A DNA stretch of 64,000 nt from Schmidtea nova (lineage: Eukaryota). Positions within the stretch are counted from its first letter, which is position 1, and each line of letters starts with the position of its first letter. Below, piece after piece: positions 19,413-60,565 of this stretch. The notes beneath the pieces were generated by a model. The model saw nothing but the letters and a program-made list of their open reading frames with translations. It made no database searches and was not told the origin of the DNA. The position numbers and the translations under genes are program-made. The stretch is taken from positions 360,778,001 through 360,842,000 of the forward strand of contig CM097883.1 of assembly GCA_044892505.1 (NCBI GenBank), written 5' to 3'.

Positions 19413-20399
19413 TGTTGAGGATACCTAAATTCAAAATAATATAATAAATAAACAAAATTACTTGGGGGAAAATTGTCATGGGGAATGACACGATTGATTG
19501 GAGCCTGGGAAAGAAAACGGAAGTAAAAAGGAATGAGAAATGAGAAGGGGAAACAAAAGAAAAGAAATCAGACAAGCAAAACGAAATAGAGGTCAGCACT
19601 AATTAACTAGTGCAAATAGGAAGAAATTCTAAAGTTGGGAAAAACAAAAACAACAACAAGAATTTTATCTTGACAACCGGTCAGAGATAATGTGGGCAAA
19701 AAGCAAACAAGCCGAAGCGGCAAAAAGGAGAAAAACAGAGGTTATCTTGACAGCTGTCAAAGATAACTCCGTTGCTGAAAAAATGAATGGAAAATCATGT
19801 TGGAAAAATGTAACAACAGCTGATAATTTTAAGTGCTACAAAGTGAAGAAGTATAAAAGGAGGAAGCATCTCAGAAAGAAACACAACATTGTATACAGAA
19901 GTGGTTAGAGAAAATATTTGAGAGAAAGCGTTTGAGAAAATAAAGCTAGTAAAATTCATTAAAAAGGAAGCAGAAAAACGTCCAGAGAAAGTTAAAGAAG
20001 AGTCAAAAGGAGAATCCAATAATTGAAACCAGAAACTAAGGGATAAGCAGCAGGAGCTTATTCAAGCGTTGAGAAAATAAAGCTAGTAAAATTCAGAGAG
20101 TAAATCCAAGTCAAATAAAGAAAACAACCAGTCAAATTACCAATTGTTATACTCCCCAGCAGTGAGTGATTTCGAACATCGATTATACACTAGTGCTATT
20201 CTTCACTATAGTGTCGTAATAAGCACTGTATAATCAGCTGTAGTTTGAATTTGGTCAGTTCATTGTAAATCGAAGTTATTTGTGATAATCAATAAAATTT
20301 CCTGTTGTCAGTTGTTATTGTGGGTCAATAAAGAGCACGTTTTGGAGTCAGGGTAATAATTTGTTAATTATAAAGTCACCAACGAAAGATAACCCAACA
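19413..20399 (+). repeat. 5' LTR (987 bp)
   Basis: TGTTGAGGATACC...GATAACCCAACA; matches 35261-36246. Confidence 0.97.
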
Positions 20400-20422: not shown

Positions 20423-20636
20423 CAAACGTTGGTGAGGAGCGATTGAAAAAGTAATTGGGATATATCCGGCGAAATAAAGTGGTGAAGAATTATTGAAATA
20501 AAATTTATTGAAGAGATAGTGAAAATAATTGTGAGGAAAAGAAAATACTAAACAAAATTGTGAAAAGGTAAATTATTAATTGTTGTAATAAATTTGAATT
20601 TAGATTTTGCGAAACTTGAGAAAATAATTTATTAAA

Positions 20637-23600
20637 GTGAGTCGATATAATTTACGAAGCAAAAGTAAAAAGGAACCCATAATGAGTAGTGAAGATTTGC
20701 CAGTATCAGTTATTAAAGAAAATAATGATTTTGCAAGTTGTCAAAGATTACCTGTGGAACAATATGGAGGAGATCCGGTTATTTTTGTAGATTTTATGAG
20801 TGATTACTACATGTATGCAACGGCGTACGGATGGTCTCAAGCGATTATGATTCAGAGATTACCTTTATATCTTAAAGGAGCAGCTAGAGAGGTTTGGCAA
20901 CAGATTGATAAAAAATTAATTGGTAATGATTGGGCAAAGTTGAAAGATGCGTTAGCTGCAAAACTTATCGGAGGAGATATCAAAAGATTAATGCGTCAAA
21001 AGTTTTATAGTAGAGTTCAAAATCCAAATGAAACAGTGAGCGAATTTGCGTATCATTTGTCAACCCTCGCAAGTAAATCATTTGAAGAAGACTCAAAACA
21101 ACCAGGCCTAGCCCAACAAATGCAAGAATTAATCCAAGACCAATTTTTGTCAGGAATAAACAAAGAAATAAAAACCGCATTATGCTGTGTAGATTATGAT
21201 AATTTTGATGAACTAGTAAAAAAGGCAATGAAAATCGAATTGAATTTGAAGAGCACCAAAAACAAATCTGATGTGTTCGCGATTATTCCAGCTCAAAGGG
21301 AAAGATCAATTACACCAACCCAAAACAATTGGGAGCCAGAAAATAGATTCCAGCGATCAAAAAGTCCATCACCCAAATGGAGAACCGAGTTAAATATAAA
21401 TAGACCAAGCCGTAATTTCCAAGGCGCTGAGAGATCCAGAGTGATCCAGTGTGAAAATTGCAAGAAGATTGGCCATTATGCAAACCAGTGTTGGTTCAAA
21501 AATAATTCCGATAGTACACCCAGAAGAATAACCCAAGATTATCGTACAAACGATAGGGGAACCAATTTTCGGAGAACAGTTCCTGATATAAAATCCAATG
21601 TTAATGAAGTGCAATGTTATCGCTGCGGTAGAAAAGGACATGTTTCCAGAAATTGTTTTTCAAGATCAAGATCACCCTCAACTTCACCTTCACCACAGAG
21701 AGACAATGTAAATTTGAACGGACAAATTCAATGCCATTTATGTAGAAATTATGGACATATTGCAAGATCCTGTCCAAGAAATACGAATAAATTTCAAAGG
21801 CCAATATTAAAGCGAACAATAAGATTTCAAGATGAAAATCCATCGAATGACAATATAGCCTATGTTCAGCAAGATGGTTTTAGAGAAAAGATCGAAAGCG
21901 ATGTTAAACAGTTGAACCAAAAACTGAATAAATTGATAGCCAAATTTGAATCGGATGAAGAAACAGATACCCACATGATGACGAGGAAAGAGTTGAGCGA
22001 AAGCGAGTCAGAATCAGATAAAGTACAAATCAATAAAGCTAAAGCCGACATACAAAGTGAAAGGAGTACTGTATTTATTGCCAAAATCAGAAAGTTAGTT
22101 GCGGAACCAGACGTAAATTCCCAGAAAATAACAGAATTATTTACGAGGCTAACTAAAATACCTTTAAGTCTGACAAAAATTAAAACTGTTATTAAACTTT
22201 GTGCAGAATGTTATGCAGCAAGTGTGGAAAAACGAGATGTATTCAAAGATTTTATGAGAATATTTGGGCAATATCTACGGAAAAATAAATGGTTAGATCC
22301 TATATTTATCCAAATGAATGCTCCAGATGGTACAAAATCCAACTATAAAATCGATGCATACGAGAAAGTACGCGAGCTAAAAAGAGAAGTAATGCACAAG
22401 TGTGAAAGTTGGGCGGTGGAACTCAAATTTATGGATCAAGTATTAGAGGATGGCGAATTCTTGGTAGATTATGGATTAATTCCTGGCGGTGAAAATGAAA
22501 TGCAAATGACGAATATGATCGCCAAGGAAAAAACAGTAACAAATGACTCTGACGAAATCAGATTTGAACTAATGGAAGCATTGCTTAAAGGAAACACAGG
22601 TGACATTATTGATAAATTAAATAATATTTTGAATTTAGAACTCAAAGTAGAAGACAAGTTAAAAATTCTAGACTGTGTTAGACCCTATATGAATGCGGAA
22701 AACGAATATGGTAAAACAATAAAAACTCTTATTCAAAAATTTGGTCAAGAATTCAGGGAAGAAGGGATTTATAATGAGCCATTCGTAGTACTGTTAAAAA
22801 TAAATGGTCAAGGAGTAGAATATACGGATGAACATTGGTATACGAAAGTGAATAAAATTCGTCGAAGAACAGCAGAAATCATGGGCAATGATGGAATAAT
22901 TGTGCTGACGTATAAAGGTTTTGAGCTAGACGATGATGAATATTTATTTGATTGTGGATGTATGCCACGAAAGCGTAACGAAGATAGATTTCTTACGGAT
23001 CAAAATTTTATTAATGATATAATTGCAGTGAAACAAGTGGATACAGATGAAGTAGAAAAAGGTTATAAAATTGAATTACCAGAGTTCGGCAGTGAAACAA
23101 TGGATAATGAGGATGAAATATCAAAGGAACAAGAAATGACAGAACATGGAGAGGAACAGGAAACTGAGCAGAGAATTGATGAAAGTATAATAAAAACGGA
23201 AGTTAAAAATGAAGCGTATATGACAGAAATGGAGATTGATAATATTACGGAGGAAAGACAACGCAAAGATTTATACGAGGTGAGATGTGAAATAATACAG
23301 AGACTCCAAGGTGAGAGAGGTCAGAAGGAATTAAAAGAGACTGAAAAGGTTGTACGTGCGCTGGCAAATGAATTATATGGCGAAGCAGCAGAGAAAACAC
23401 AAGTAGAATTATATGTGAGAAAAATTGCAAAAAAGTTGAAAAAGAGACTTTATGTGGTCTTGAGATATGTAAAAGACAACAAGGAATTCTGTGATGATGG
23501 AGTGATAACCAATATGATGACAGGAGAAATGGATAGAGATTTAGTATTGACAATTACGAGTTATATTTTGTTAGAAATCGGGACACATGATTATGTAAAT

Positions 23601-26600
23601 ATGGAAAAACGAGATGAAGTAATCAAAAAGGCGAGCAAAGTATTGTATAAGCATGTGGGCAAATGGATAAAGGAAATTGGAGGCTGGGAGAAATTAGTTA
23701 AACAAAAAACAGAATCATCAGTCGAAAAGAGAGAAAGTTACGAAGGAATACCGAGAGGTAAACCTATGAAACTTCCATTTATAATGTTTATGATCATAAT
23801 ATTATGTGCGATTACGACGCAAACAACATCTTTAATTGCGTACGATTGTTCTCAAACCAAAATGGGAAAGATTTATTCCATGGTGGACATGACAGAATGT
23901 TCTGATGCACACCCAATGAGTTTAACAGTTGAAAATGATGTAAAGTATCATGTATACCAAGAATCAGGCTTTAGACATGCGGTAGTAAGAGAGTGCATTG
24001 TAAAGAGAACGAGCTTTGTGTTTTATTGTGGCAAATGGAGTCACACATCACTAATTAAAATGTATTCAATCCCAAGGCCAGTTGATATAAACCCAGAAAA
24101 TTGCATGGCTGCGTTTCAAACAGGGGAAGTGAAAATTAGCCCCGAGGTTAAATTGAAAGCTAAATTAAATCATGCTATACGAGAAACAATTATCGAAAAA
24201 GGAACAATAAAGGCTAATGGGGATTGTAAAGGAGAACCGTACAAAATGAATGGAGAAATTATTGATCAAATTGTTGTGATGGAAGAGTATTTGACGGAAT
24301 TGAGAGAATTCCAAGGAGCTTTTGATGACGACACAGGCAAGTTACAAACGCATCCATTCTGCAATATGAAGCAGGCTAACTGTCAAACAGGAGAATCAAT
24401 TTTGGTGTACGAAGTTAAGACAAATCTATGTAATTTAATACATTTGAAAACAATGAGTTTTAATGAAATGAGTGGAGAACAGTTGAGAGAAAGACCGGAA
24501 AATTTGAATGTGGAGGCAAAACCGGACATGACAATCAGAATTACCCCATTGAGAACCAGAAAAACTCCAGTTGTTTTGATGTCAACTTTATTAGATGACG
24601 GTATGAGATTTATTCGAAAAAATGTGGTAAATAAATGTGGTCAAACGGTGTATGAGACCAATTATAAAGGAATTTATGTATCCAAGAAAAGAGTCGAGGA
24701 AGCTCAAGTCCAAATACATAGTACGGATATCAAATTGACAAATTATTTTAATAACAAAATAGACTATTTGTTCCACTACAGTCAAAGTATTATGGAAAAT
24801 ATTTACAGAGAAATGATATTAAACGATTGTAAGTTGAATAAAGAAATACTACGGAACAGAATGGCGATGGCAGTCACAAATCCAAACTTGGTAGCACCTA
24901 TGTTAATATCAGAAAACGGTGTGTTTGCAAGAGTATTTGGAGAAGCATTGTATAGCTACAAATGCAACGAGATTCCCGTGCAAATTATAAAGTACGAGCA
25001 ATGTACCAATGAATTGCCAGTAAGTGTTAATGGTAAATTGAGATTCATGGAGCCAATAACTCGAATATTGTTGGAAGAAGACGCGAAACCTAAACTTTTA
25101 AAATGTAACCGATTGCTCGCACCATTATATCGACTAACATCAGATTCGTGGATATCATTACCAGATCATAAAGGAGTAAGAAATCCAGAAAAATTAGAAT
25201 TAACAAAACTTGAATATTTAATAAATTTTACATCATTGGACAAATTAGCACAAACTGGGTTGTATTCTCAAGAAGATGTTGAAGAAGCCCGAAGAAATCT
25301 ACTATTTCCATCAAAGAAAGAACGAGTCATTACTGAAATGATTGATACTATATTACCAAGTGGTGAAGGCAAAGTAAATTATGATTATTTACTAACACCA
25401 GATCATTATAAGAAAGCAGCGTACAATACGATGAAAAAGATATGGGGGAAATTCATGTTTTTGGGACAAGCATGTGCAGGATTAATTGGAATTTATGTTA
25501 TGTTCGTGGTGATTAAAGTGATAATATCTCAAATACTAACTACTCATCAGCTATATGTTATTTCGGGATGGTCCTGGAAACTGATTATCGGATGTATTCC
25601 ATTTCTGGCAAGATTTGTAATTACAAAGCATCAATATAAAGAGATGGGGAAAGTCAAGTCACGACTAAATAATGACGGAAGAGACATTGATTCGAGTTCG
25701 GACAGCGAGAGTGGGAATGGGGGTAAAGTAAAAGTACCTCCAATATATTATTATAAAAACAGTAAAATTAAAATTAATGATATACGAGAAAAATCTAAAT
25801 CTTTGAATTTATTACAATCGGTACCACAAACAAGTGAAACAGACACATTCAGGCGATTATGCATTCCAAAAACTTTTCTACCAACAGCACCAATATATCC
25901 AGTAGAGAAGTTAAAAGAAATGAGACCAGTTGAAAACATTGAATTGACAAATGAGCAAATCGCACCAACTAGTGCAGAAATTGAAAGGAGAAACATGCTG
26001 GGATTACCAGGAAATTATGCATTAATGACAATTGGAAATAAAGGAAGACAGCCAAGAATATGGATACAAGTGAATAAACATAGAGTCGAAGCATTAATAG
26101 ATTCAGGCTCAAGCAATACAATATTATCAGATAAATTATTAAATTCAGGGGAAAGAGCACGAATGAAAAGCACAGAAGAAGTTGTACGATCAATGACGAA
26201 AAACAAATTAAATATCATTGGACAGATCAGAGTAAAATTCAATATTGGAAATAAAGAAATTGTTCATAATGCGCTAATAATGAAAGATAGCCCAGTAATG
26301 TGTTTGGTAGGGATGGATGTGTTGGAGCAATTGGAAGGAGTCTCTCTTGATTTGAAAACCGGAAATCTAATTGTAGGGAAAACAGGAAAAGTTATTCATG
26401 AAACGGGAGATGTGTTTCTAAATCAAACGTTAAGAGTACCACCTCAGAGTGAAGTTATTTGTTATGTGAATACAATGAGAGTTCCAGACGATGAATTTAT
26501 ATTTCAACCAAGTGAGAATTTAATTGCCAAATATGATACTCCAATATGCGACGAAGTAGTGAAAGTTCAAGATCAATTAATTCCTGTTCGCATCACTAAC

Positions 26601-29600
26601 AATAGCGACAAAGAAGTGTCATTTAAACCAAAAACGAAATTAGGAAAGCTAACAAAAATCCAAAAAATCAATAATAAAAGATTACCAAAAAATATTAAAA
26701 TATACAAAGAACCCCAAGTTGACAGTGCAGAGTTGACGCAAGAGCAAACACAAACATTTACAAAATTGTTGAGAAAATATCAAGATATTTTTGCGAAACA
26801 TGAGTATGATTTGGGAGTAACTCATATAATTGAACATGAAATTCCATTAATTGATGAAACTCCAATTAAATTACGACCATACAGAATTCCGTATGCGCAT
26901 CAAGACGAAAGCGATAGACAAATAAAGGCTATGAAAGAATTCCATATTATTAGAGACAGTTTTTCACCATTTTCTTCCTCTATTGTTGTAGTCAAAAAGA
27001 AAGACGGTGAACTGAGATTTTGTATTGACTACCGAAAACTGAATCAAGTGACAAGAAAGGATACGTATCCCATTCCGGTTCCTCAGGAAATGTTTGACAA
27101 AATGGGAGAAGCTCAATATTTTACTGTTATTGATTTAAACAAAGGCTACAATCAATTCAAAGTTAAAGAGACAGATAAAGGGAAAACAGCGTTTTCAGAT
27201 GGAAAAGGTTTGTATGAATTTAATGTTTTACCATTTGGTTTAACAGGTGCACCAGCGACATTTCAAAGAGGAATGAATTTTGTGCTGCGAGATATTCCAC
27301 ACGCCTTGGTATATATTGATGATATTATAATCTTCTCAGGTAATTTCAAAGAGCACATGAGAGATGTGGAAACAGTATTTAAACGGCTCAGAGAAGCAAA
27401 TCTCAAAATTAAACCATCAAAATGTGAATGGGGAAAGTCAGAGGTAGTGTATGTTGGACATATTATTTCACGAAAAGGTCTACAACCAAATCCAGAAAAT
27501 GTTAAGAAAATTAAAGATTATCCAACTCCAAAAAATGTTGATGATATTAGACAATTTCTCGGGTTAGCAAGCTATTACAGAAAATTTATTAGAAACTTTG
27601 CACATGTTGCTCAACCATTAACGATGCTATTAAAGAAAACCACAAAATTCGTGTGGGGCAAAGCTCAGCAGGATATTTTCGAAATACTCAAACAAAAGTT
27701 AATGATGAATCCAATATTACGATGTCCTGATTTCACAAAGACATTTATGTTAATGACGGACGCAAGCGGTTTTGCGTTGGGAGCGGTATTAGGACAAAAG
27801 GTTGAAGGAGAAAAAGATCATGTAATCGCATATGCTAGTCGATCATTGAAACCACATGAGAAAAACTATTCAACAATCGAAAAAGAAACTCTTGCTCTAG
27901 TATATGGCATAACAACATTTCGACAGTACTTAGTTGGCCGAAAATTCATTGTCTATACAGACCATAATCCATTACAATGGTTAATGAAGCATCGAGATGC
28001 AGCAAGTAAATTAATTAGGTGGTCGTTAGCCTTGCAAGAATATGACTTTGAAATCAAATATCGAACAGGAAAATCAAATGCTAATGCTGATACCTTGTCT
28101 AGAATTCCAAATGAGGAAATTAATAATAACCAGGAAGAAATAAATTTAAGAGATACTGTATTTGCAGTAGTTAAAGCAGCAAATAATATGGCAGAGCTAC
28201 AGAGAGATCAAGAAATGGATGAGGAGCTGAAACAAATAATAAAACATACAGTAATAATGAAAAAAGATAAAGAATTGAAACAATTAATCGAGGAAAAACA
28301 TAAATATGTTATTCACAGAGGTATATTAAAATATATTAAAAATGATGAATTGTTAATAGTGGTTCCAATAATACATCGAAATACGTTATTATTACAGTAC
28401 CATGACATGGCATTGGGAGGACATTTGTCAGCAAGAAAAACACTGTCGCGAATAAAACTAAAATATTTCTGGAATACAATGGAGCAGGATGTAAAGCAAT
28501 GGTGCAACACTTGCAAAATATGCCTGACTCGAAGAAATACTGGAAAGAAAATAAAGGTTCCTCTAAAACCAATGCCAATACCAGCAGCGCCAATGGAATT
28601 TTCAGCAATGGATATCATCGGGCCTTTACCCGAGACAACGAATGGAAATAAATACATTTTGGTATTCTGTGATTATTTAACCAAATGGCCAGAAGCGTTT
28701 GCTATGCCAAACCAAAAGGCAGAAACTGTTGCACAAATATTTGTTGAAGAAATCATATTTAGATATGGAGTTCCAAAGAAATTGCTAACAGATCAAGGGA
28801 CAAACTTTCAGAGTGATCTGTTTAAATCTATTACAGAATTATTTGGTATATATAAATTGAGCACATCACCATATCATCCACAAACAGATGGGTTAGTGGA
28901 AAGATTTAATGGTACATTAATTAATATGATCTCATCCTACGTGAATCGAAAGCAAAAAGACTGGGATCTGTTCATTAGACCATGCTTATATGCCTATCGA
29001 AATTCAGTAAATGAGAGTACGGGAGAAACGCCCTTTTATCTTATGTACCTAAGACGAAATAATATGCCAATCGATTTAGAGTTCCAATCACCAACTTCCC
29101 AATATTTAGAGATTCCAAATTATAAAGTTGCTCTGCAAGAACGTTTACAATCCGCTTGGACTCAAGCCGGATTAAAAATAAAATATCGACAGGAGCAATA
29201 TAAAGAAAGTTACGATAAAAAAGCGCATGAGCACGGAATAAAAATTGGCGACCTAGTGTATCTAAATAAGCCAGAGCCAACAAAGGGACTCTCAACAAAA
29301 TTACAAAGACCATTCAAAGGTCCGTATACGGTCTGTGATGCGACTGCAACAAATCTAAAATTGCGACCAATTAATAATAAAAAAGCAGAAACAATTGTAG
29401 TTCATGCCAATAGATGTAAGAAAGTGCCTGAACTGGAACATCAGCTACGAAATAAACAAAACAAAACAAATGATGAAATAGAAATCCGGCAAAAGTTCCA
29501 AAAAAATCCAACTCCATTGAGTTATATGAATAAAGTTTTATTCATAACGACAGTTTTAATAAATATGGTAACGAACACAGTTGGAATAAAAATGGATATA

Positions 29601-30326
29601 CCATATGCGGTCAATAAATTACCATCTTTAGAGAAAATAGACGTATACTTAATGAAAGTAGTTCTCACTCTTAATCTGTCAAGGAACAATTACAAAAAAC
29701 CACTTCGTAATAAAGGAATTTATACAAACAATCAATTGTTTGAAAGAAATGTTCAAATTGAGATGATATACTGGAATAAAACGAATCAAGTTCAAATTGA
29801 AAATTGTGATACTACAATAATTGTTTCATATAAAGCTGAGGTCGAGGGAAAAGTAACTATTATTATAAATAATAAAATTAAGGTGGTATTGAATGAACAC
29901 CGAAACAGAGCGAGAGTCAGTACTCAGAACTCAGGAACCGAATCACAAACAAGCAAACTCCTTATAGCAAACCAATGCAGCAAAGGGAAAACCAATCCAG
30001 ACCGATGGCAAACTATATGCATAAAAGACAGACAGATCTATTTCGTTCTCGATCAACCCTCTAAACAAACCCTTGATCACAATCTAACTCTACCATTAAC
30101 TCTTTCATGTACAAAAATCGAAAACTTTTCATTAAACTATAAAGAAAATTCATTCACTAACAATTGTGTTGATATGTTTTCTGTATGTATCATAATGGCA
30201 AGACCAAGAGTGATCTTGCTCATTTGCTTTATCCTCATTTCACGAACTGACAAAAGAAACAATTCTAATTGTGATTTTCAATATTCTGAGTCGCAGATAT
30301 CAATGCGGTTGGAATCAAGGGTGTAG
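20637..30326 (+). CDS. 3229-aa Gag-UBL-UBL-Bcl2-like-Env-PR-RT-RNaseH-IN polyprotein
   Basis: No internal stop. Gag core, 3 CCHC knuckles, DSG protease (26100), YIDD (27312), TDAS/EKE/TDH RNase H, HHCC + D,D,E integrase and a GPY motif. GTG at 20637; first ATG at 20682. Confidence 0.95.
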   Translation: MSRYNLRSKSKKEPIMSSEDLPVSVIKENNDFASCQRLPVEQYGGDPVIFVDFMSDYYMYATAYGWSQAIMIQRLPLYLKGAAREVWQQIDKKLIGNDWAKLKDALAAKLIGGDIKRLMRQKFYSRVQNPNETVSEFAYHLSTLASKSFEEDSKQPGLAQQMQELIQDQFLSGINKEIKTALCCVDYDNFDELVKKAMKIELNLKSTKNKSDVFAIIPAQRERSITPTQNNWEPENRFQRSKSPSPKWRTELNINRPSRNFQGAERSRVIQCENCKKIGHYANQCWFKNNSDSTPRRITQDYRTNDRGTNFRRTVPDIKSNVNEVQCYRCGRKGHVSRNCFSRSRSPSTSPSPQRDNVNLNGQIQCHLCRNYGHIARSCPRNTNKFQRPILKRTIRFQDENPSNDNIAYVQQDGFREKIESDVKQLNQKLNKLIAKFESDEETDTHMMTRKELSESESESDKVQINKAKADIQSERSTVFIAKIRKLVAEPDVNSQKITELFTRLTKIPLSLTKIKTVIKLCAECYAASVEKRDVFKDFMRIFGQYLRKNKWLDPIFIQMNAPDGTKSNYKIDAYEKVRELKREVMHKCESWAVELKFMDQVLEDGEFLVDYGLIPGGENEMQMTNMIAKEKTVTNDSDEIRFELMEALLKGNTGDIIDKLNNILNLELKVEDKLKILDCVRPYMNAENEYGKTIKTLIQKFGQEFREEGIYNEPFVVLLKINGQGVEYTDEHWYTKVNKIRRRTAEIMGNDGIIVLTYKGFELDDDEYLFDCGCMPRKRNEDRFLTDQNFINDIIAVKQVDTDEVEKGYKIELPEFGSETMDNEDEISKEQEMTEHGEEQETEQRIDESIIKTEVKNEAYMTEMEIDNITEERQRKDLYEVRCEIIQRLQGERGQKELKETEKVVRALANELYGEAAEKTQVELYVRKIAKKLKKRLYVVLRYVKDNKEFCDDGVITNMMTGEMDRDLVLTITSYILLEIGTHDYVNMEKRDEVIKKASKVLYKHVGKWIKEIGGWEKLVKQKTESSVEKRESYEGIPRGKPMKLPFIMFMIIILCAITTQTTSLIAYDCSQTKMGKIYSMVDMTECSDAHPMSLTVENDVKYHVYQESGFRHAVVRECIVKRTSFVFYCGKWSHTSLIKMYSIPRPVDINPENCMAAFQTGEVKISPEVKLKAKLNHAIRETIIEKGTIKANGDCKGEPYKMNGEIIDQIVVMEEYLTELREFQGAFDDDTGKLQTHPFCNMKQANCQTGESILVYEVKTNLCNLIHLKTMSFNEMSGEQLRERPENLNVEAKPDMTIRITPLRTRKTPVVLMSTLLDDGMRFIRKNVVNKCGQTVYETNYKGIYVSKKRVEEAQVQIHSTDIKLTNYFNNKIDYLFHYSQSIMENIYREMILNDCKLNKEILRNRMAMAVTNPNLVAPMLISENGVFARVFGEALYSYKCNEIPVQIIKYEQCTNELPVSVNGKLRFMEPITRILLEEDAKPKLLKCNRLLAPLYRLTSDSWISLPDHKGVRNPEKLELTKLEYLINFTSLDKLAQTGLYSQEDVEEARRNLLFPSKKERVITEMIDTILPSGEGKVNYDYLLTPDHYKKAAYNTMKKIWGKFMFLGQACAGLIGIYVMFVVIKVIISQILTTHQLYVISGWSWKLIIGCIPFLARFVITKHQYKEMGKVKSRLNNDGRDIDSSSDSESGNGGKVKVPPIYYYKNSKIKINDIREKSKSLNLLQSVPQTSETDTFRRLCIPKTFLPTAPIYPVEKLKEMRPVENIELTNEQIAPTSAEIERRNMLGLPGNYALMTIGNKGRQPRIWIQVNKHRVEALIDSGSSNTILSDKLLNSGERARMKSTEEVVRSMTKNKLNIIGQIRVKFNIGNKEIVHNALIMKDSPVMCLVGMDVLEQLEGVSLDLKTGNLIVGKTGKVIHETGDVFLNQTLRVPPQSEVICYVNTMRVPDDEFIFQPSENLIAKYDTPICDEVVKVQDQLIPVRITNNSDKEVSFKPKTKLGKLTKIQKINNKRLPKNIKIYKEPQVDSAELTQEQTQTFTKLLRKYQDIFAKHEYDLGVTHIIEHEIPLIDETPIKLRPYRIPYAHQDESDRQIKAMKEFHIIRDSFSPFSSSIVVVKKKDGELRFCIDYRKLNQVTRKDTYPIPVPQEMFDKMGEAQYFTVIDLNKGYNQFKVKETDKGKTAFSDGKGLYEFNVLPFGLTGAPATFQRGMNFVLRDIPHALVYIDDIIIFSGNFKEHMRDVETVFKRLREANLKIKPSKCEWGKSEVVYVGHIISRKGLQPNPENVKKIKDYPTPKNVDDIRQFLGLASYYRKFIRNFAHVAQPLTMLLKKTTKFVWGKAQQDIFEILKQKLMMNPILRCPDFTKTFMLMTDASGFALGAVLGQKVEGEKDHVIAYASRSLKPHEKNYSTIEKETLALVYGITTFRQYLVGRKFIVYTDHNPLQWLMKHRDAASKLIRWSLALQEYDFEIKYRTGKSNANADTLSRIPNEEINNNQEEINLRDTVFAVVKAANNMAELQRDQEMDEELKQIIKHTVIMKKDKELKQLIEEKHKYVIHRGILKYIKNDELLIVVPIIHRNTLLLQYHDMALGGHLSARKTLSRIKLKYFWNTMEQDVKQWCNTCKICLTRRNTGKKIKVPLKPMPIPAAPMEFSAMDIIGPLPETTNGNKYILVFCDYLTKWPEAFAMPNQKAETVAQIFVEEIIFRYGVPKKLLTDQGTNFQSDLFKSITELFGIYKLSTSPYHPQTDGLVERFNGTLINMISSYVNRKQKDWDLFIRPCLYAYRNSVNESTGETPFYLMYLRRNNMPIDLEFQSPTSQYLEIPNYKVALQERLQSAWTQAGLKIKYRQEQYKESYDKKAHEHGIKIGDLVYLNKPEPTKGLSTKLQRPFKGPYTVCDATATNLKLRPINNKKAETIVVHANRCKKVPELEHQLRNKQNKTNDEIEIRQKFQKNPTPLSYMNKVLFITTVLINMVTNTVGIKMDIPYAVNKLPSLEKIDVYLMKVVLTLNLSRNNYKKPLRNKGIYTNNQLFERNVQIEMIYWNKTNQVQIENCDTTIIVSYKAEVEGKVTIIINNKIKVVLNEHRNRARVSTQNSGTESQTSKLLIANQCSKGKTNPDRWQTICIKDRQIYFVLDQPSKQTLDHNLTLPLTLSCTKIENFSLNYKENSFTNNCVDMFSVCIIMARPRVILLICFILISRTDKRNNSNCDFQYSESQISMRLESRV
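20750..21773 (+). other. Gag capsid region and three CX2CX4HX4C zinc knuckles
   Basis: LPLYLKGAAREVW...RVQNPNETVSEF...DQFLSGI; knuckles start at 21450, 21615 and 21732. Confidence 0.92.
22299..22510 (+). other. Ubiquitin-like domain 1 (about aa 555-625)
   Basis: LKFMDQVLEDGEFLVDYGL aligns with ubiquitin LIFAGKQLEDGRTLSDYNI; preceded by a beta-beta-alpha pattern. No di-Gly terminus. Confidence 0.75.
22779..22990 (+). other. Ubiquitin-like domain 2 (about aa 715-785)
   Basis: VLTYKGFELDDDEYLFDCG; same layout as UBL1, 160 aa downstream. Confidence 0.62.
23268..23705 (+). other. Bcl-2-like domain (about aa 878-1023)
   Basis: BH2-like KVLYKHVGKWIKEIGGWEKLV (compare Bcl-xL TYLNDHLEPWIQENGGWDTFV), BH3-like VVRALANEL, and a degenerate BH1 at about the expected spacing. 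Confidence 0.68.
23766..25630 (+). other. Env-like glycoprotein, chuvirus-G/class III fusion type, with signal peptide and C-terminal TM
   Basis: MKLPFIMFMIIILCAITT signal, then LIAYDC; Cys pattern ...NDCKLNKEIL...NP...GEALYSYKC..C.NELPV...F.EP.TRIL...C; TM at 25452 onward followed by SGWSWKL. Confidence 0.85.
26040..26370 (+). other. Retropepsin (aspartic protease)
   Basis: VEALIDSGSSNTIL...CLVGMDVLEQL. Confidence 0.93.
26760..28110 (+). other. Reverse transcriptase and RNase H
   Basis: RFCIDYRKLN, LPFGLTGAPATFQ, YIDDIII, FLGLASYYRKFI, TDASGFALGAVL, EKETLA, TDHNPL. Confidence 0.97.
28380..29420 (+). other. Integrase (HHCC, DDE core, GPY/F)
   Basis: YHD..LGGH...C..C; AMDIIGP; LTDQGTNF; DGLVERFN; RPFKGPY. 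Confidence 0.96.
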
Positions 30327-30599
30327 TAAGCTACTATTTTGCATGTAATGACAATATACAGTATTATTTCCCTTATATTTCTTTAGTTAATGATTCTTTA
30401 ATAATCAATTGATAATCTTTTGTTGTAAAATATGTTGTTAAAATTTAAATTATATTGATGTAATTTGATTGGTCGAATAATCACACTGTAGGGGGAGAGA
30501 ATTTTTGGATATAATGATGGCGGTGGTTTTCAGAGTTTGACTTGGAAAATTTTTAAAGAAAAAAAAAAAAAAACGATCAAAATTAAATCTAAAGGAAGA

Positions 30600-32016
30600 A
30601 TGGAAAAAATCAACAGACCAGCAAGATTATACGGGAAATATTATCAAGAAAGAAGAAGCTATACAGACAAAGTTATCGTAATAGAAGAAAATTTGAAAAT
30701 TCCTAATTGGGTAAGGTTAGGGAATGAAGAAATGAGAATATGTATGGTGGAATTGGAATGGAAATCCAATACGAAATTTTCAGAAGTGTTAATAAGAAGA
30801 AACGAAGAGACATGGGAGGTTCATGTTTTTAAAGGAAGAGTAGAAATTTTAGAGAATGATGCAACGGTTCTACAAACATTGGAAACTAATTCATCATGGA
30901 AGATATCAAAAGAAATATGGCATAAGAAGATGCGAGCAGCCAATGGAACGGCTTGCATTGTTTTAGAATGCCGAGGACCAGCTCCAACAATCCCGGCATT
31001 AGAACAAATTATGACCAATGAAGAAGAAAATAGGTTACTCCCGATAACCGAAGAAATGTTAAAGCACCGAAAATCATTTTTGAGAAAACAAATGACAAAA
31101 GAAGAAATTAGAAAAAATATTATGTTCATGGACGCGGAATATGGCGTAAGTGAGCAAAACAAGATGGTTCCGCTGTCTATTTGTTTAATAAACTATGACG
31201 GAAGAATATTGTATAACTCATTAATAACCCCCAGAGAAAAGCTAAAAAATTACGTTACCCAAATTCACGGCATCACAGAGAAGATGTCAAGAAATCAAGA
31301 TGATCAATACAAGAGTCAGAGGAAAATTCAGCAATTAACGGCAAGGAAAATCTTGATTGGACATGATCTCCAAAGCGAACTATTATACAGTGGAGTACAG
31401 ACAAGGGATCTATGGGGGTATTCGCGATTTGGCGGCAGCTCGAGCATTGACAAAAAGAAGAGTCACAAGGAACGGGCAATGGTATAAATTGTCAATAGTA
31501 GCCGAAGAAATATGTGGCATCAGAATGCAAAAAGGGAATCATACGGCATTAGAAGACACTGATGCAATTATAAGAATTTATTTGGCCATAGAAAATGAAT
31601 GGCAGGATGATGTAGAGTGTGCTGAAACAACCAGCAAAAGAAAATATTCGTTAGAAGAGTATAGGAAAAGAAAGGCTCCAACAACCAGTGAGCAGATGGA
31701 GGAACCAAAAGAGAAGAGGAAAGCAGAAGTTCAGCAAATGGAACAAGACATTCACATGGTGGAACACATGCATATTGCTCGTGAGAAAACTGCGAAAATG
31801 ATGGTTGAGAAAAAACTTGATTTATTTAAAAATGCAATTGTGGAAATGGACAAAATAATGATGCAACAAAATAGTGTTGAAAAAGGAAATCAAACAAAAG
31901 AAGGAATAGTGGTCGATAAGATGATCACGTTCAATGGTGAGGAATTGGAAGCAACAAAGGTTGTCGTCACGTATAGAGGAAGAAACCAAACTATCAAAAT
32001 TGTAATTGATAAATAG
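30600..32016 (+). CDS. Accessory ORF2: cupin-like domain + DEDDh 3'-5' exonuclease (REXO4/ISG20-like) + charged tail; one frameshift near 31414-31418
   Basis: ExoI FMDAEY (31131), SICLINYDG.ILYNSLITP.EK..NY.T.IHGIT, ExoII ILIGHDLQSEL, then in the next frame IRDLA...L..VAEEI.G...Q.G.HTALED (31540-31557). Removing one G from the G5 run gives a 471-aa protein from ATG 30600. Confidence 0.82.
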
Positions 32017-58484: not shown

Positions 58485-59852
58485 TTATTGTCCTGCGTAA
58501 TTTTGTGGTGCCAAAAGCTTTGTGAGAGCTTGGGTTTGTGATGAGGTGTATTTTGACACTATCAGGGATTTGAGATCATCATACGGGTTGTCTGCGTAAA
58601 GCGCGTCGGCTATTTTCGGGGCAAGCTCGGCTATCAATTCAGATGGTAGGCTGTCGAGTAGGTAATCGGCGCGTGATTTTGGAAAGGAAGACGTGCGCGA
58701 TTCGAAAATGCGGAACCACGACGAGGGTGTGCCGTCGGGATCCAAAAAGAACAAAATTGGGCGTGAAGTGGATGAATAAGGCGGTTCTATAGTGGGTCGG
58801 ACGCCTCCTAAAACGCGGCAATGAATTTCTATGATAGCATTAGGTGGGATGTCGGTGAGTGACGAAACTGGGAAACCATTGCACGTCATGTAAAATTCAT
58901 TCCTATTAATCAGATGAGAGGTGGCGATATCAGTGCGCAGATCCGTGAAAATGGGGATTTGGCGTGTTTTGTGGTTGAAACGCGTGAGGACATATGTTGG
59001 GAAAGTGGCGAAAGAATCGTTGTTGTACATGGTGGATTGAGTGGGGTTGTGAGCGTGAATTGTATTGAATGTGTCAAAAAACTGGACAAGGTATTTGTGA
59101 ATTTTGAGAAAGATAATAAAAATAATTTTAAAATTTAGTATGAATAAAAATAATATAAATAAATATAATATATTATGTAATTTAATATTATAAATAATAC
59201 ATATAAAATACGACTCGCCCGATAATCCCAAATAGCTGTTGCAATTGTTTTGAGAAATAGACGCTTCCAGCTGCCACGCCGCTCCGTTAGTGGAACTGTG
59301 AATCACACAGGAATAGGAGCCGAGGTCGAGTTTACGCAACGGACAAGAATAACTAGCAGTTTTGAATTGAGGATAAACTTTACATTGCATGGTAAATCTT
59401 TGACCAATGACATATTGTTCAGGTAATGAGACAATGTTGACTGAGTATTCAACTGATTGCCTGTTGTAATTGACACTTTCACGCTTTCCTGTTTCTACTG
59501 ATTGACAGAATGTAGTTCCTGAGGCTGGTTGAAATGTCGAGGCTTCCAATTCCATTGTTGACCCGGTCTCAGTAGTTCCTTTAACAGCGCATTTATAAGA
59601 ACCCGAATCATCTCGTCTCAATTGTTCAAAAGTGATGCTGGTGTTTGCGAATTTCGGCATGACGTGTGCAGCTACTTGTTTTGAGTCACTTTTAGATATT
59701 TGACCAAATATCGTTGAATTTGACGAAATTGAGCTCGGTACGACAATATGCAACTTTATAGAAGATATCTGTATGAACTTTAACGACATCGATGACGATG
59801 GTGTTGATATTGAAGAAAAAATTGAATCTGATTTCTTTTTTACCAAAAACAT
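58485..59852 (-). CDS. Chimeric frame: Ser/Thr-rich + Ig-like fragments + intron-like AT tract + UBL(LGG) + Gag N-terminus
   Basis: DDSGSYKC (about 59600), DLGSYSC (about 59315), IEIHCRVLGG (GG at 58803-58808), SWFRIFE...LDSLPSE...NPYDDLKSLI. The element's own start may be ATG 59030. Confidence 0.7.
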   Translation of the reverse strand: MFLVKKKSDSIFSSISTPSSSMSLKFIQISSIKLHIVVPSSISSNSTIFGQISKSDSKQVAAHVMPKFANTSITFEQLRRDDSGSYKCAVKGTTETGSTMELEASTFQPASGTTFCQSVETGKRESVNYNRQSVEYSVNIVSLPEQYVIGQRFTMQCKVYPQFKTASYSCPLRKLDLGSYSCVIHSSTNGAAWQLEASISQNNCNSYLGLSGESYFICIIYNIKLHNILYLFILFLFILNFKIIFIIFLKIHKYLVQFFDTFNTIHAHNPTQSTMYNNDSFATFPTYVLTRFNHKTRQIPIFTDLRTDIATSHLINRNEFYMTCNGFPVSSLTDIPPNAIIEIHCRVLGGVRPTIEPPYSSTSRPILFFLDPDGTPSSWFRIFESRTSSFPKSRADYLLDSLPSELIAELAPKIADALYADNPYDDLKSLIVSKYTSSQTQALTKLLAPQNYAGQ

Positions 59853-60042
59853 AATCGGTGTTGATTCAGTTGATAAAGTATTCGATGTTTCCGTTGAAAT
59901 CCTATTTTGATTGAATGGTGCAAGTGAATCGATTTTTGCGCTCGGTAATTGTCCAAATGTAAACCCGGTTGATGTTGATGTTGCTGAGTTTTGAGAAAAT
60001 CCACTAGTAATAAAAACTATTCTGTTTGCCTCATATATTATA

Positions 60043-60060
60043 TCAGGGTTTCTGACACCA
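60043..60060 (-). promoter_or_regulatory. Primer binding site, tRNA-Leu-like
   Basis: TGGTGTCAGAAACCCTGA begins 2 nt after the LTR; the first 11 nt match the common Leu PBS TGGTGTCAGAAG. Confidence 0.7.
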
Positions 60061-60062
60061 TT

Positions 60063-60565
60063 TTTAGCTGCTGCAAATATATTTAATAAGACAAAAAAAA
60101 TATATTTAATAAAGCAAATTGTTCTTTCTTAGCTGCAGATATATCATCAGATTTCACAGTTGATTTAGTATTCTTTTCCTTCACGAAATAGCTGTATTGA
60201 ATGCGCTCTGGTATATCAATGGTAGAAATATCAATCTTTGTGCTTGTAGCAATCACTGGGGTGATTGATTGTACCAATCGCCTCTTGTGCTCACTGAATT
60301 CCTTTGTACTAATTGCGTTCTTTTTCATTACTACATTCAATGGGTAAATTTGTGGTTTGCTTTGGGTTTTAATTAGTTCAGCTTCCATTTTTTAAATTCC
60401 TTTTTGCATTTTGGTTTTTTTAAGTCTGCTTAAAGTGCCATTTTTTTGTTATTTAAACAATCCGATAAATAAATTAGTAATTGATTTTAATATATAAATA
60501 TTGATATTTAATTAAATTGCTACATACAAATATCGTAAAAACATACAAATAACGGAGGCACTACA
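60063..60565 (-). repeat. 5' LTR (503 bp)
   Basis: Minus strand starts TGTAGTGCC; matches 56621-57123. Confidence 0.9.

Follow-up and report, generated by a model that had tools for sequence, protein, structure and literature searches.

Tandem helix–ubiquitin-like units between the nucleocapsid and a Bcl-2-like domain in a Burro-related gag-env-pol element of Schmidtea nova

We analyzed a 64,000-nucleotide stretch of Schmidtea nova DNA (GenBank assembly GCA_044892505.1, contig CM097883.1, positions 360,778,001 to 360,842,000 of the forward strand; hereafter, the window), in which a long terminal repeat (LTR) retroelement encodes two successive copies of a two-domain unit, each consisting of a four-helix bundle followed by a ubiquitin-like (UBL) domain. 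Both units are housed in one open frame of 3232 codons (20628-30326; 3214 amino acids (aa) from the ATG at 20682; all features of the element lie on the plus strand), downstream of three CCHC zinc knuckles and upstream of a Bcl-2-like domain. We read this part of the polyprotein as accessory cargo that was probably captured by a Burro-related Ty3/gypsy element with a gB-type envelope protein (Env). A sequence-only reading made without database searches had proposed tandem helical and ubiquitin-like modules past the nucleocapsid, and this was borne out: both motifs are present, and AlphaFold returned four helices plus a beta-grasp twice. That reading had overlooked the Bcl-2-like domain, the Env anchor, the resemblance of the helical part to the N-terminal domain of TFIIS (TND) and the LEDGF integrase-binding domain (IBD), and the published Burro precedent.

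The motif LEDGEFLVDYGL is located at aa 588 (nucleotide (nt) 22443); 161 aa further along, at aa 749 (nt 22926), comes the motif LDDDEYLFDCGC. The unit length of about 160 aa proposed earlier was retained, but the limits, originally 22050..22990, were corrected to aa 455-615 (nt 22044-22526) for unit 1 and aa 616-~785 (nt 22527-~23036) for unit 2. Unit 1 comprises a four-helix bundle at aa 454-534 (22041..22283), predicted with AlphaFold and matched by profile to the second helical domain, and a ubiquitin-like beta-grasp at aa 541-614 (22302..22523). Unit 2 comprises a four-helix bundle at aa 623-694 (22548..22763; model pLDDT 87.8) and a ubiquitin-like domain (22782..23036) with a core at aa 701-762, the conserved sequences H-W-x-x-K-V and LDDDEYL.DCG, and a last strand that is uncertain and was modeled at low confidence. 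The two units aligned locally with a score of 71 (z 7.8), which none of 2000 shuffles reached, and the self-alignment of aa 470-630 with aa 630-790 suggested in the sequence-only reading gave z 7.3 (1 of 2000 shuffles). When single sequences were compared, the UBL halves aligned (z 6.8) and the helical halves did not (z 1.4, 222 of 2000 shuffles); profile comparison related both, at E 2.4e-7 (probability 93%) for helix with helix and E 1.4e-13 for UBL with UBL, with control comparisons against the Bcl-2-like region at E 0.06 and 0.29.

Both UBLs were predicted to adopt the beta-grasp fold typical of integral ubiquitin-like domains, and their sequence profile resembled the ubiquitin family. The window sequence matched PF00240 at E 0.0016 (18.6 bits, below the cut-off of 25.4), its homologue P0008 exceeded that cut-off (33.9 vs 25.4 bits), and a 24-row UBL profile detected NEDD8 (E 1.6e-5) and ISG15 (E 6e-7). 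A word-indexed homologue search with polyprotein region 452-783 retained none of 1972 candidates, the best hit of a single-sequence search against the PDB had an E of 1.1, and a search of the ESM Atlas with both units gave no usable match, while unit 1 gave just leads of 0.80-0.83, some of which were ubiquitin clusters.

Conjugatable modifiers such as ubiquitin, NEDD8, ISG15, and SUMO end in di-glycine, and no such terminus was found in any of the 29 unit rows. The sequence-only reading was therefore right that neither UBL ends in GG and that both are integral and non-conjugatable, although it did not mention an internal GG at aa 602-603, which lies in the loop ahead of the last strand of UBL1 and is present in no other unit-1 row. 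In sequence register with ubiquitin, the Ile44 position is occupied by K582 in UBL1 and T743 in UBL2, and the hydrophobic Ile44 patch of Rad23/Dsk2-type proteasome shuttles is thus missing from the window element; this position is charged (K, R, or E) in 7 of 11 unit-1 rows and, among relatives, hydrophobic in 10 of 15 unit-2 or single-unit rows. Across 26 rows, conservation was highest for two residues where helix 4 ends, G529/688 (92%) and R533/692 (88%), and for three in the UBL, E592/753 (96%), G598/759 (100%), and P601/762 (88%). The latter three correspond to ubiquitin positions 54-63, away from Ile44; overall, conservation of the UBL peaks on the opposite, acidic face, at positions equivalent to ubiquitin 52-63. 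The best-kept residues may together form a helix–UBL interface. The UBLs do not act as ubiquitin tags, and the Ile44 patch is probably not their working surface.

In fold searches, the predicted unit 2 bundle, which is TND/LEDGF-IBD-like or HEAT-pair-like, superposed on TND and LEDGF-IBD structures with root-mean-square deviations (rmsd) of 1.8-2.6 over 74-81 residues. The short third helix of the five-helix TND fold was absent from both models, which have four helices, and profile alignments showed a 5-residue gap where it would sit. None of the 16 helical-domain rows matched the TND family PF08711 at E up to 5, and the helical-domain profile found no coherent match among PDB sequences and Pfam and nothing under E 0.5 in BFVD. 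The helical domain could be a captured TND/LEDGF-IBD homologue, either a Gag-encoded version of the host cofactor fold borrowed by lentiviral integrases or a decoy for the TIM motifs of transcription elongation, and the whole a mobile TND–UBL unit that underwent duplication and was exchanged between endogenous viruses of planarians, but we consider this doubtful. A death-fold (DED/CARD) identity was given up, since four helices are modeled and the top 50 rows of the fold searches, which need not be exhaustive, include no death domain. Elsewhere in the genome (G000:C1:216,191,000-216,252,000), about 25 host TND (PF08711) matches repeat in tandem roughly every 1.2 kb.

The units are followed by a poorly conserved acidic linker (23007..23267; 28 D/E in 87 aa) and by the Bcl-2-like helical domain (23268..23705), which ends with the BH2-like sequence WIKEIGGW. 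An eight-row profile of this domain detected Bcl-xL and Bcl-2 at E ~1e-3, ranked below two designed coiled coils; homologues from the sister family with one unit matched PF00452 at E 5.5e-7 and 7.2e-7, whereas the window sequence alone reached E 0.078. As in the Bcl-2 family, a hydrophobic anchor lies C-terminal to a BH2-like W-x4-GGW. NWGR, the BH1 motif of that family, is degenerate and was absent from all eight rows, which carry DRDL, DRKT, TKGK, and others instead, and AlphaFold predicted an all-helical domain with pLDDT <60 for most of it. In the autonomous families of genome G000, the Bcl-2-like domain was always downstream of the units wherever the frame was readable that far. A hydrophobic segment identified by hydropathy (23763..23831), the putative Env signal peptide, begins ~20 aa beyond the domain (the two together spanning 23268-23831), and this layout is common to all aligned families. 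Given this spacing, one hydrophobic segment could double as Env signal and Bcl-2 tail anchor. In the sister family (L094-L098), the frames measure ~2990-3080 aa and encode one knuckle, only one unit, and a Bcl-2 domain that is better kept; a PF00452 search of the genome yielded 1679 candidates.

Searching G000 with the window region and foreign homologues revealed at least nine families. Two units, whole or broken, were present in all 24 loci examined, at 23 places, these loci having been picked by matching the unit and not being a random sample; the loci reached through Bcl-2 similarity carried one unit in five of five cases. Among foreign Gags, P0004 and P0005 have one unit, and P0002 and P0008 have two. 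In an 11-row tree of reverse transcriptase (RT) and RNase H, rooted only at the midpoint, a branch supported at 100/100 split the two-unit families from the one-unit family. In a 27-row tree of the units, which left out L056, P0007, and unit 1 of P0002, six unit-1 copies formed one group (support 97/97), and the six unit-2 copies paired with them formed another (96/89); a single origin of all unit-1 rows is compatible with the data (p-AU 0.41), which is no positive proof of it. Because the copies group by position across families and a single-unit sister lineage exists, the old internal duplication suggested by the sequence-only reading is upheld. No DNA-level repeat between units 1 and 2 was found above chance. 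Homology and these trees indicate that the ancestor carried one helix–UBL unit between the nucleocapsid and the Bcl-2-like domain, and that this unit was duplicated before the clade of the window element diversified. Between families B and C, dN/dS was 0.10 for helix 1, 0.15 for UBL1, 0.39 for helix 2, and 0.07 for UBL2; the capsid and RT had lower values (0.016 and 0.015, respectively), and the acidic linker plus Bcl-2-like domain had 0.38. On these ratios and trees, the cassette is old and under selection, and less constrained than the core genes.

A frame of 1053 aa in a 28-kb LTR element also contains the unit (E 7e-8 and 1e-7); this element is located at L078:3345 to L081:1119 (G000:C1 ~253,261,300-253,289,100), with a second copy at L084-L086. 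This high-copy element has identical LTRs of ~5.4 kb and encodes a RING protein, a protein with the order helix–UBL, retropepsin, ankyrin, and transmembrane segment, a TRAF protein (RING, zinc finger, MATH), and an IAP protein (BIR, RING). No capsid, zinc knuckle, RT motif, or integrase was found in it, the protease being its sole match to the window polyprotein. The unit lies ~40 aa upstream of the retropepsin, which also matches PF09668, and the invariant Gly is kept in it in the 24-row alignment. The 28-kb element seems to be a Burro-type carrier of cargo genes that is itself non-autonomous. An autonomous giant Burro was not found in G000 by way of BIR, where none of the 150 matches scored out of 1295 candidates lay in a frame >451 aa, or by way of dUTPase, which gave just two matches at one place.

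Of the functions considered, the one we favor, tentatively and with less than even confidence, is that the units are protein-binding adaptors or decoys, non-catalytic and non-conjugatable, that act on host cell-death, TNF–NF-kB, or ubiquitin-ligase signaling. A cell-death or immune role is ranked first because the unit accompanies Bcl-2, TRAF, IAP, and ankyrin cargo even where capsid and integrase were not detected. The units would be produced at the abundance of capsid protein because they share an ORF with Gag. At the N-terminus of Env, signal peptidase would cleave the chain and so split Gag-cargo from Env-Pol; the Gag–(helix–UBL)2–Bcl-2 product would remain cytosolic, with the Env signal peptide anchoring it in the way that the tail anchors a Bcl-2 protein; and the protease of the element would release the cargo from the nucleocapsid. 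The units would then bind host proteins non-covalently and keep the producing cell alive or quiet. Both the cuts and the membrane topology in this scheme are predicted. Several observations weigh against such a role. The host function is assigned by association, and the best structural matches of the helical domain are nuclear transcription modules, not signaling proteins. The most conserved residues, the G and R that close helix 4 and the E, G, and P of the UBL, may do no more than join the two domains, in which case they say nothing about a host target. P0005 lacks the Bcl-2-like end, and P0008 terminates past unit 2. The death role of the Bcl-2-like domain itself is putative, because NWGR has been lost and most of the model has pLDDT <60.

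A nuclear role we rank second and consider unlikely: the helical domain would be a true TND/LEDGF-IBD relative that binds acidic TIM motifs, or else the integrase of the element itself, and tethers the integration complex to transcribed chromatin or raises LTR transcription, with the UBL as a second docking surface. Less probable is a structural spacer or substitute for matrix. Gag begins at the capsid without a matrix, and rigid units could tie the capsid precursor to the C-terminal anchor or aid folding of the polyprotein; the position between nucleocapsid and anchor is fixed in all autonomous families read, one or two copies are tolerated, and the conserved residues suit an intramolecular interface. 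However, the unit is retained in the 28-kb element without a detected capsid, and surface-type motifs of unit 2 (HW..KV, DDDEY) persist across families at 20-30% identity. The UBLs might instead recruit the proteasome, p97, or UBA-type receptors, as do the UBLs of Rad23, Dsk2, and midnolin, and so degrade host factors or turn over the polyprotein. The sequence-only reading had raised this, and the hydrophobic residue at the Ile44 position in most unit-2 and single-unit rows agrees with it, but the residues there in the window element, the charged majority among unit-1 rows, and the conservation peak on the opposite, acidic face make it very unlikely. Least probable of all, to the point of being remote, is that the UBL serves processing or protease control, through cleavage by a host deubiquitinase or Ddi1-like regulation of the aspartic protease. 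Pestivirus ubiquitin inserts are cleaved by host deubiquitinases, and in the 28-kb element the unit closely precedes the retropepsin; yet the terminal GG is missing from every unit row, which leaves the processing signal suggested earlier unsupported as one of the ubiquitin type, and in the window element 1000 aa and two membrane crossings separate the unit from the protease.

The element that carries the units is 16.8 kb long (16,834 bp). Its 5' LTR (19413..20399, 987 bp, TG...CA) is preceded by the target-site duplication AAAG and followed by the primer-binding-site-like sequence TGGTGAGCCCGACGTGAT, and its 3' LTR (35261..36246, 986 bp, TG...CA) is preceded by a polypurine tract and followed by AAAG. 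The LTRs are 99.9% identical, which, together with the AAAG duplication, indicates a very young element. The single polyprotein ORF (20682..30326, 3214 aa) runs from Gag through the cargo, Env, protease, RT, RNase H, and integrase to a C-terminal extension; the Pfam order of three zinc knuckles, Monjiviricetes fusion glycoprotein, protease, RT, RNase H, and integrase marks the element as Ty3/gypsy, its Env being in frame after Gag and before Pol. The Gag region (20724..21773) contains the capsid, recognized by homology to P0005, which itself matches PF03732 only weakly, and the three knuckles (PF00098) at aa 257, 312, and 351. Env (23832..25658; PF24664, E 2.4e-88) is a class III fusion glycoprotein of the mononegavirus/gB type with a transmembrane segment at aa ~1591-1621, and Pol (26046..28880; Pfam) has the gypsy order. 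An accessory DEDDh exonuclease gene (30492..32016; PF00929) consists of two overlapping frames in the window copy and of one 515-aa frame in family B (L022:2550-4097). The ~300-aa extension past integrase (~29400-30326) has a C-terminal hydrophobic segment and no Pfam match; in family B it is longer and very different. The family of the window element is abundant in G000, with at least 123 matches (the best 121 of 2012 candidates scored), and the full 3232-aa frame is present in 18 of the 123 rows, one of which has an internal stop and another of which is the window itself. Twenty near-identical loci differed by 11 synonymous and 9 non-synonymous variants and, being too young, are uninformative on selection. 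Three copies of the family (L002-L004; G000:C1:547.59-547.62 Mb) lie head to tail at a spacing of ~15,855 bp, as expected if they share LTRs.

Elsewhere in the window, a 547-aa frame on the minus strand (58485-60128) matches DUF7041 and an immunoglobulin V-set domain (E 9e-6) and is flanked by 505-bp direct repeats (56620-57123 and 60062-60565) that are 97.6% alike; this is perhaps a small LTR element with an immunoglobulin domain. A fragment of a Mariner-type transposase (PF01359) lies at 47218-47838.

The nearest published system is Burro/GYPSM1 of planarians, for which a review (PMC6431247, section 7) describes a Ubi2/SUMO-like motif (PF11976) between MATH and BCL-2, BIR and ankyrin motifs, and an Env placed in frame after gag and before pol; it proposes interference with host apoptosis and ubiquitination. 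In common with Burro, the window element encodes Gag, with three CCHC knuckles, in a single ORF that also holds a UBL ahead of a BCL-2-like domain and a mononegavirus-type Env. It differs in its size (16.8 kb and 3214 aa, compared with >30 kb and 4873 aa), in having no Pfam match to MATH, BIR, ankyrin, or dUTPase in the polyprotein, in having two UBL units and beside each UBL a helical domain that does not figure in that section of the review, and in the DEDDh exonuclease as an accessory ORF. Considering its size and motif set, it is a compact relative of Burro and not Burro itself. BURRO1 is expressed when PIWI is lost (PMC8532177). The element also resembles the Platyhelminthes GAG-ENV-POL errantiviruses with HSV/gB-type Env (PMC13524379), such as Smed_errantivirus_1, in the gypsy-type order of its Pol domains, its LTRs, the gB-type Env that separates gag from pol, the length of ~15-17 kb, and many intact copies. 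Of the first 64 aligned Env residues, 50, counted by eye, match those of Smed_errantivirus_1, which makes a planarian-type flatworm the probable host; the lineage has therefore already been described, although the main text and seven supplements of that source contain neither "ubiquitin" nor "Bcl" and leave the Gag cargo unannotated.

With the TND family, including the LEDGF/p75 IBD (PMC9987994), the helical domain as modeled would share a right-handed HEAT-pair-like bundle of ~80 aa; it differs in its four helices, in the lack of a PF08711 match, and in its fusion to a UBL within a Gag polyprotein. If the likeness is true, a retroelement would carry its own integrase-cofactor or elongation-factor fold, of which we found no report. 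With integral (type II) UBL proteins such as Rad23, Dsk2, and BAG6 and the tandem UBL proteins OASL and ISG15, the units share the beta-grasp, the lack of a free C-terminal GG, and two UBLs per chain, but here the UBLs are parted by an 85-aa helical domain, and the Ile44 patch is degenerate. That separation makes the geometry unlike di-ubiquitin or ISG15, and mimicry of either was rejected: the top Foldseek matches were two separate UBL matches, with rmsd of 13-15 across both. We found no published account of the tandem unit or its TND-like partner, although existing element annotations may hold more. The idea of an element meddling in apoptosis and ubiquitination becomes testable with small recombinant domains and host RNA interference. 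The case also shows accessory genes of herpesvirus or poxvirus style built into retrovirus-like elements, in frame after Gag and before Env. That planarian gag-env-pol elements carry a UBL ahead of Bcl-2 is known already, and what appears to be added is the duplication of the two-domain unit and its likeness to TND/IBD, by which the Burro motif becomes a defined, foldable 160-aa unit with a history as a single copy, as a duplicate, and as a passenger in a capsid-less element, in abundant and recently active families.
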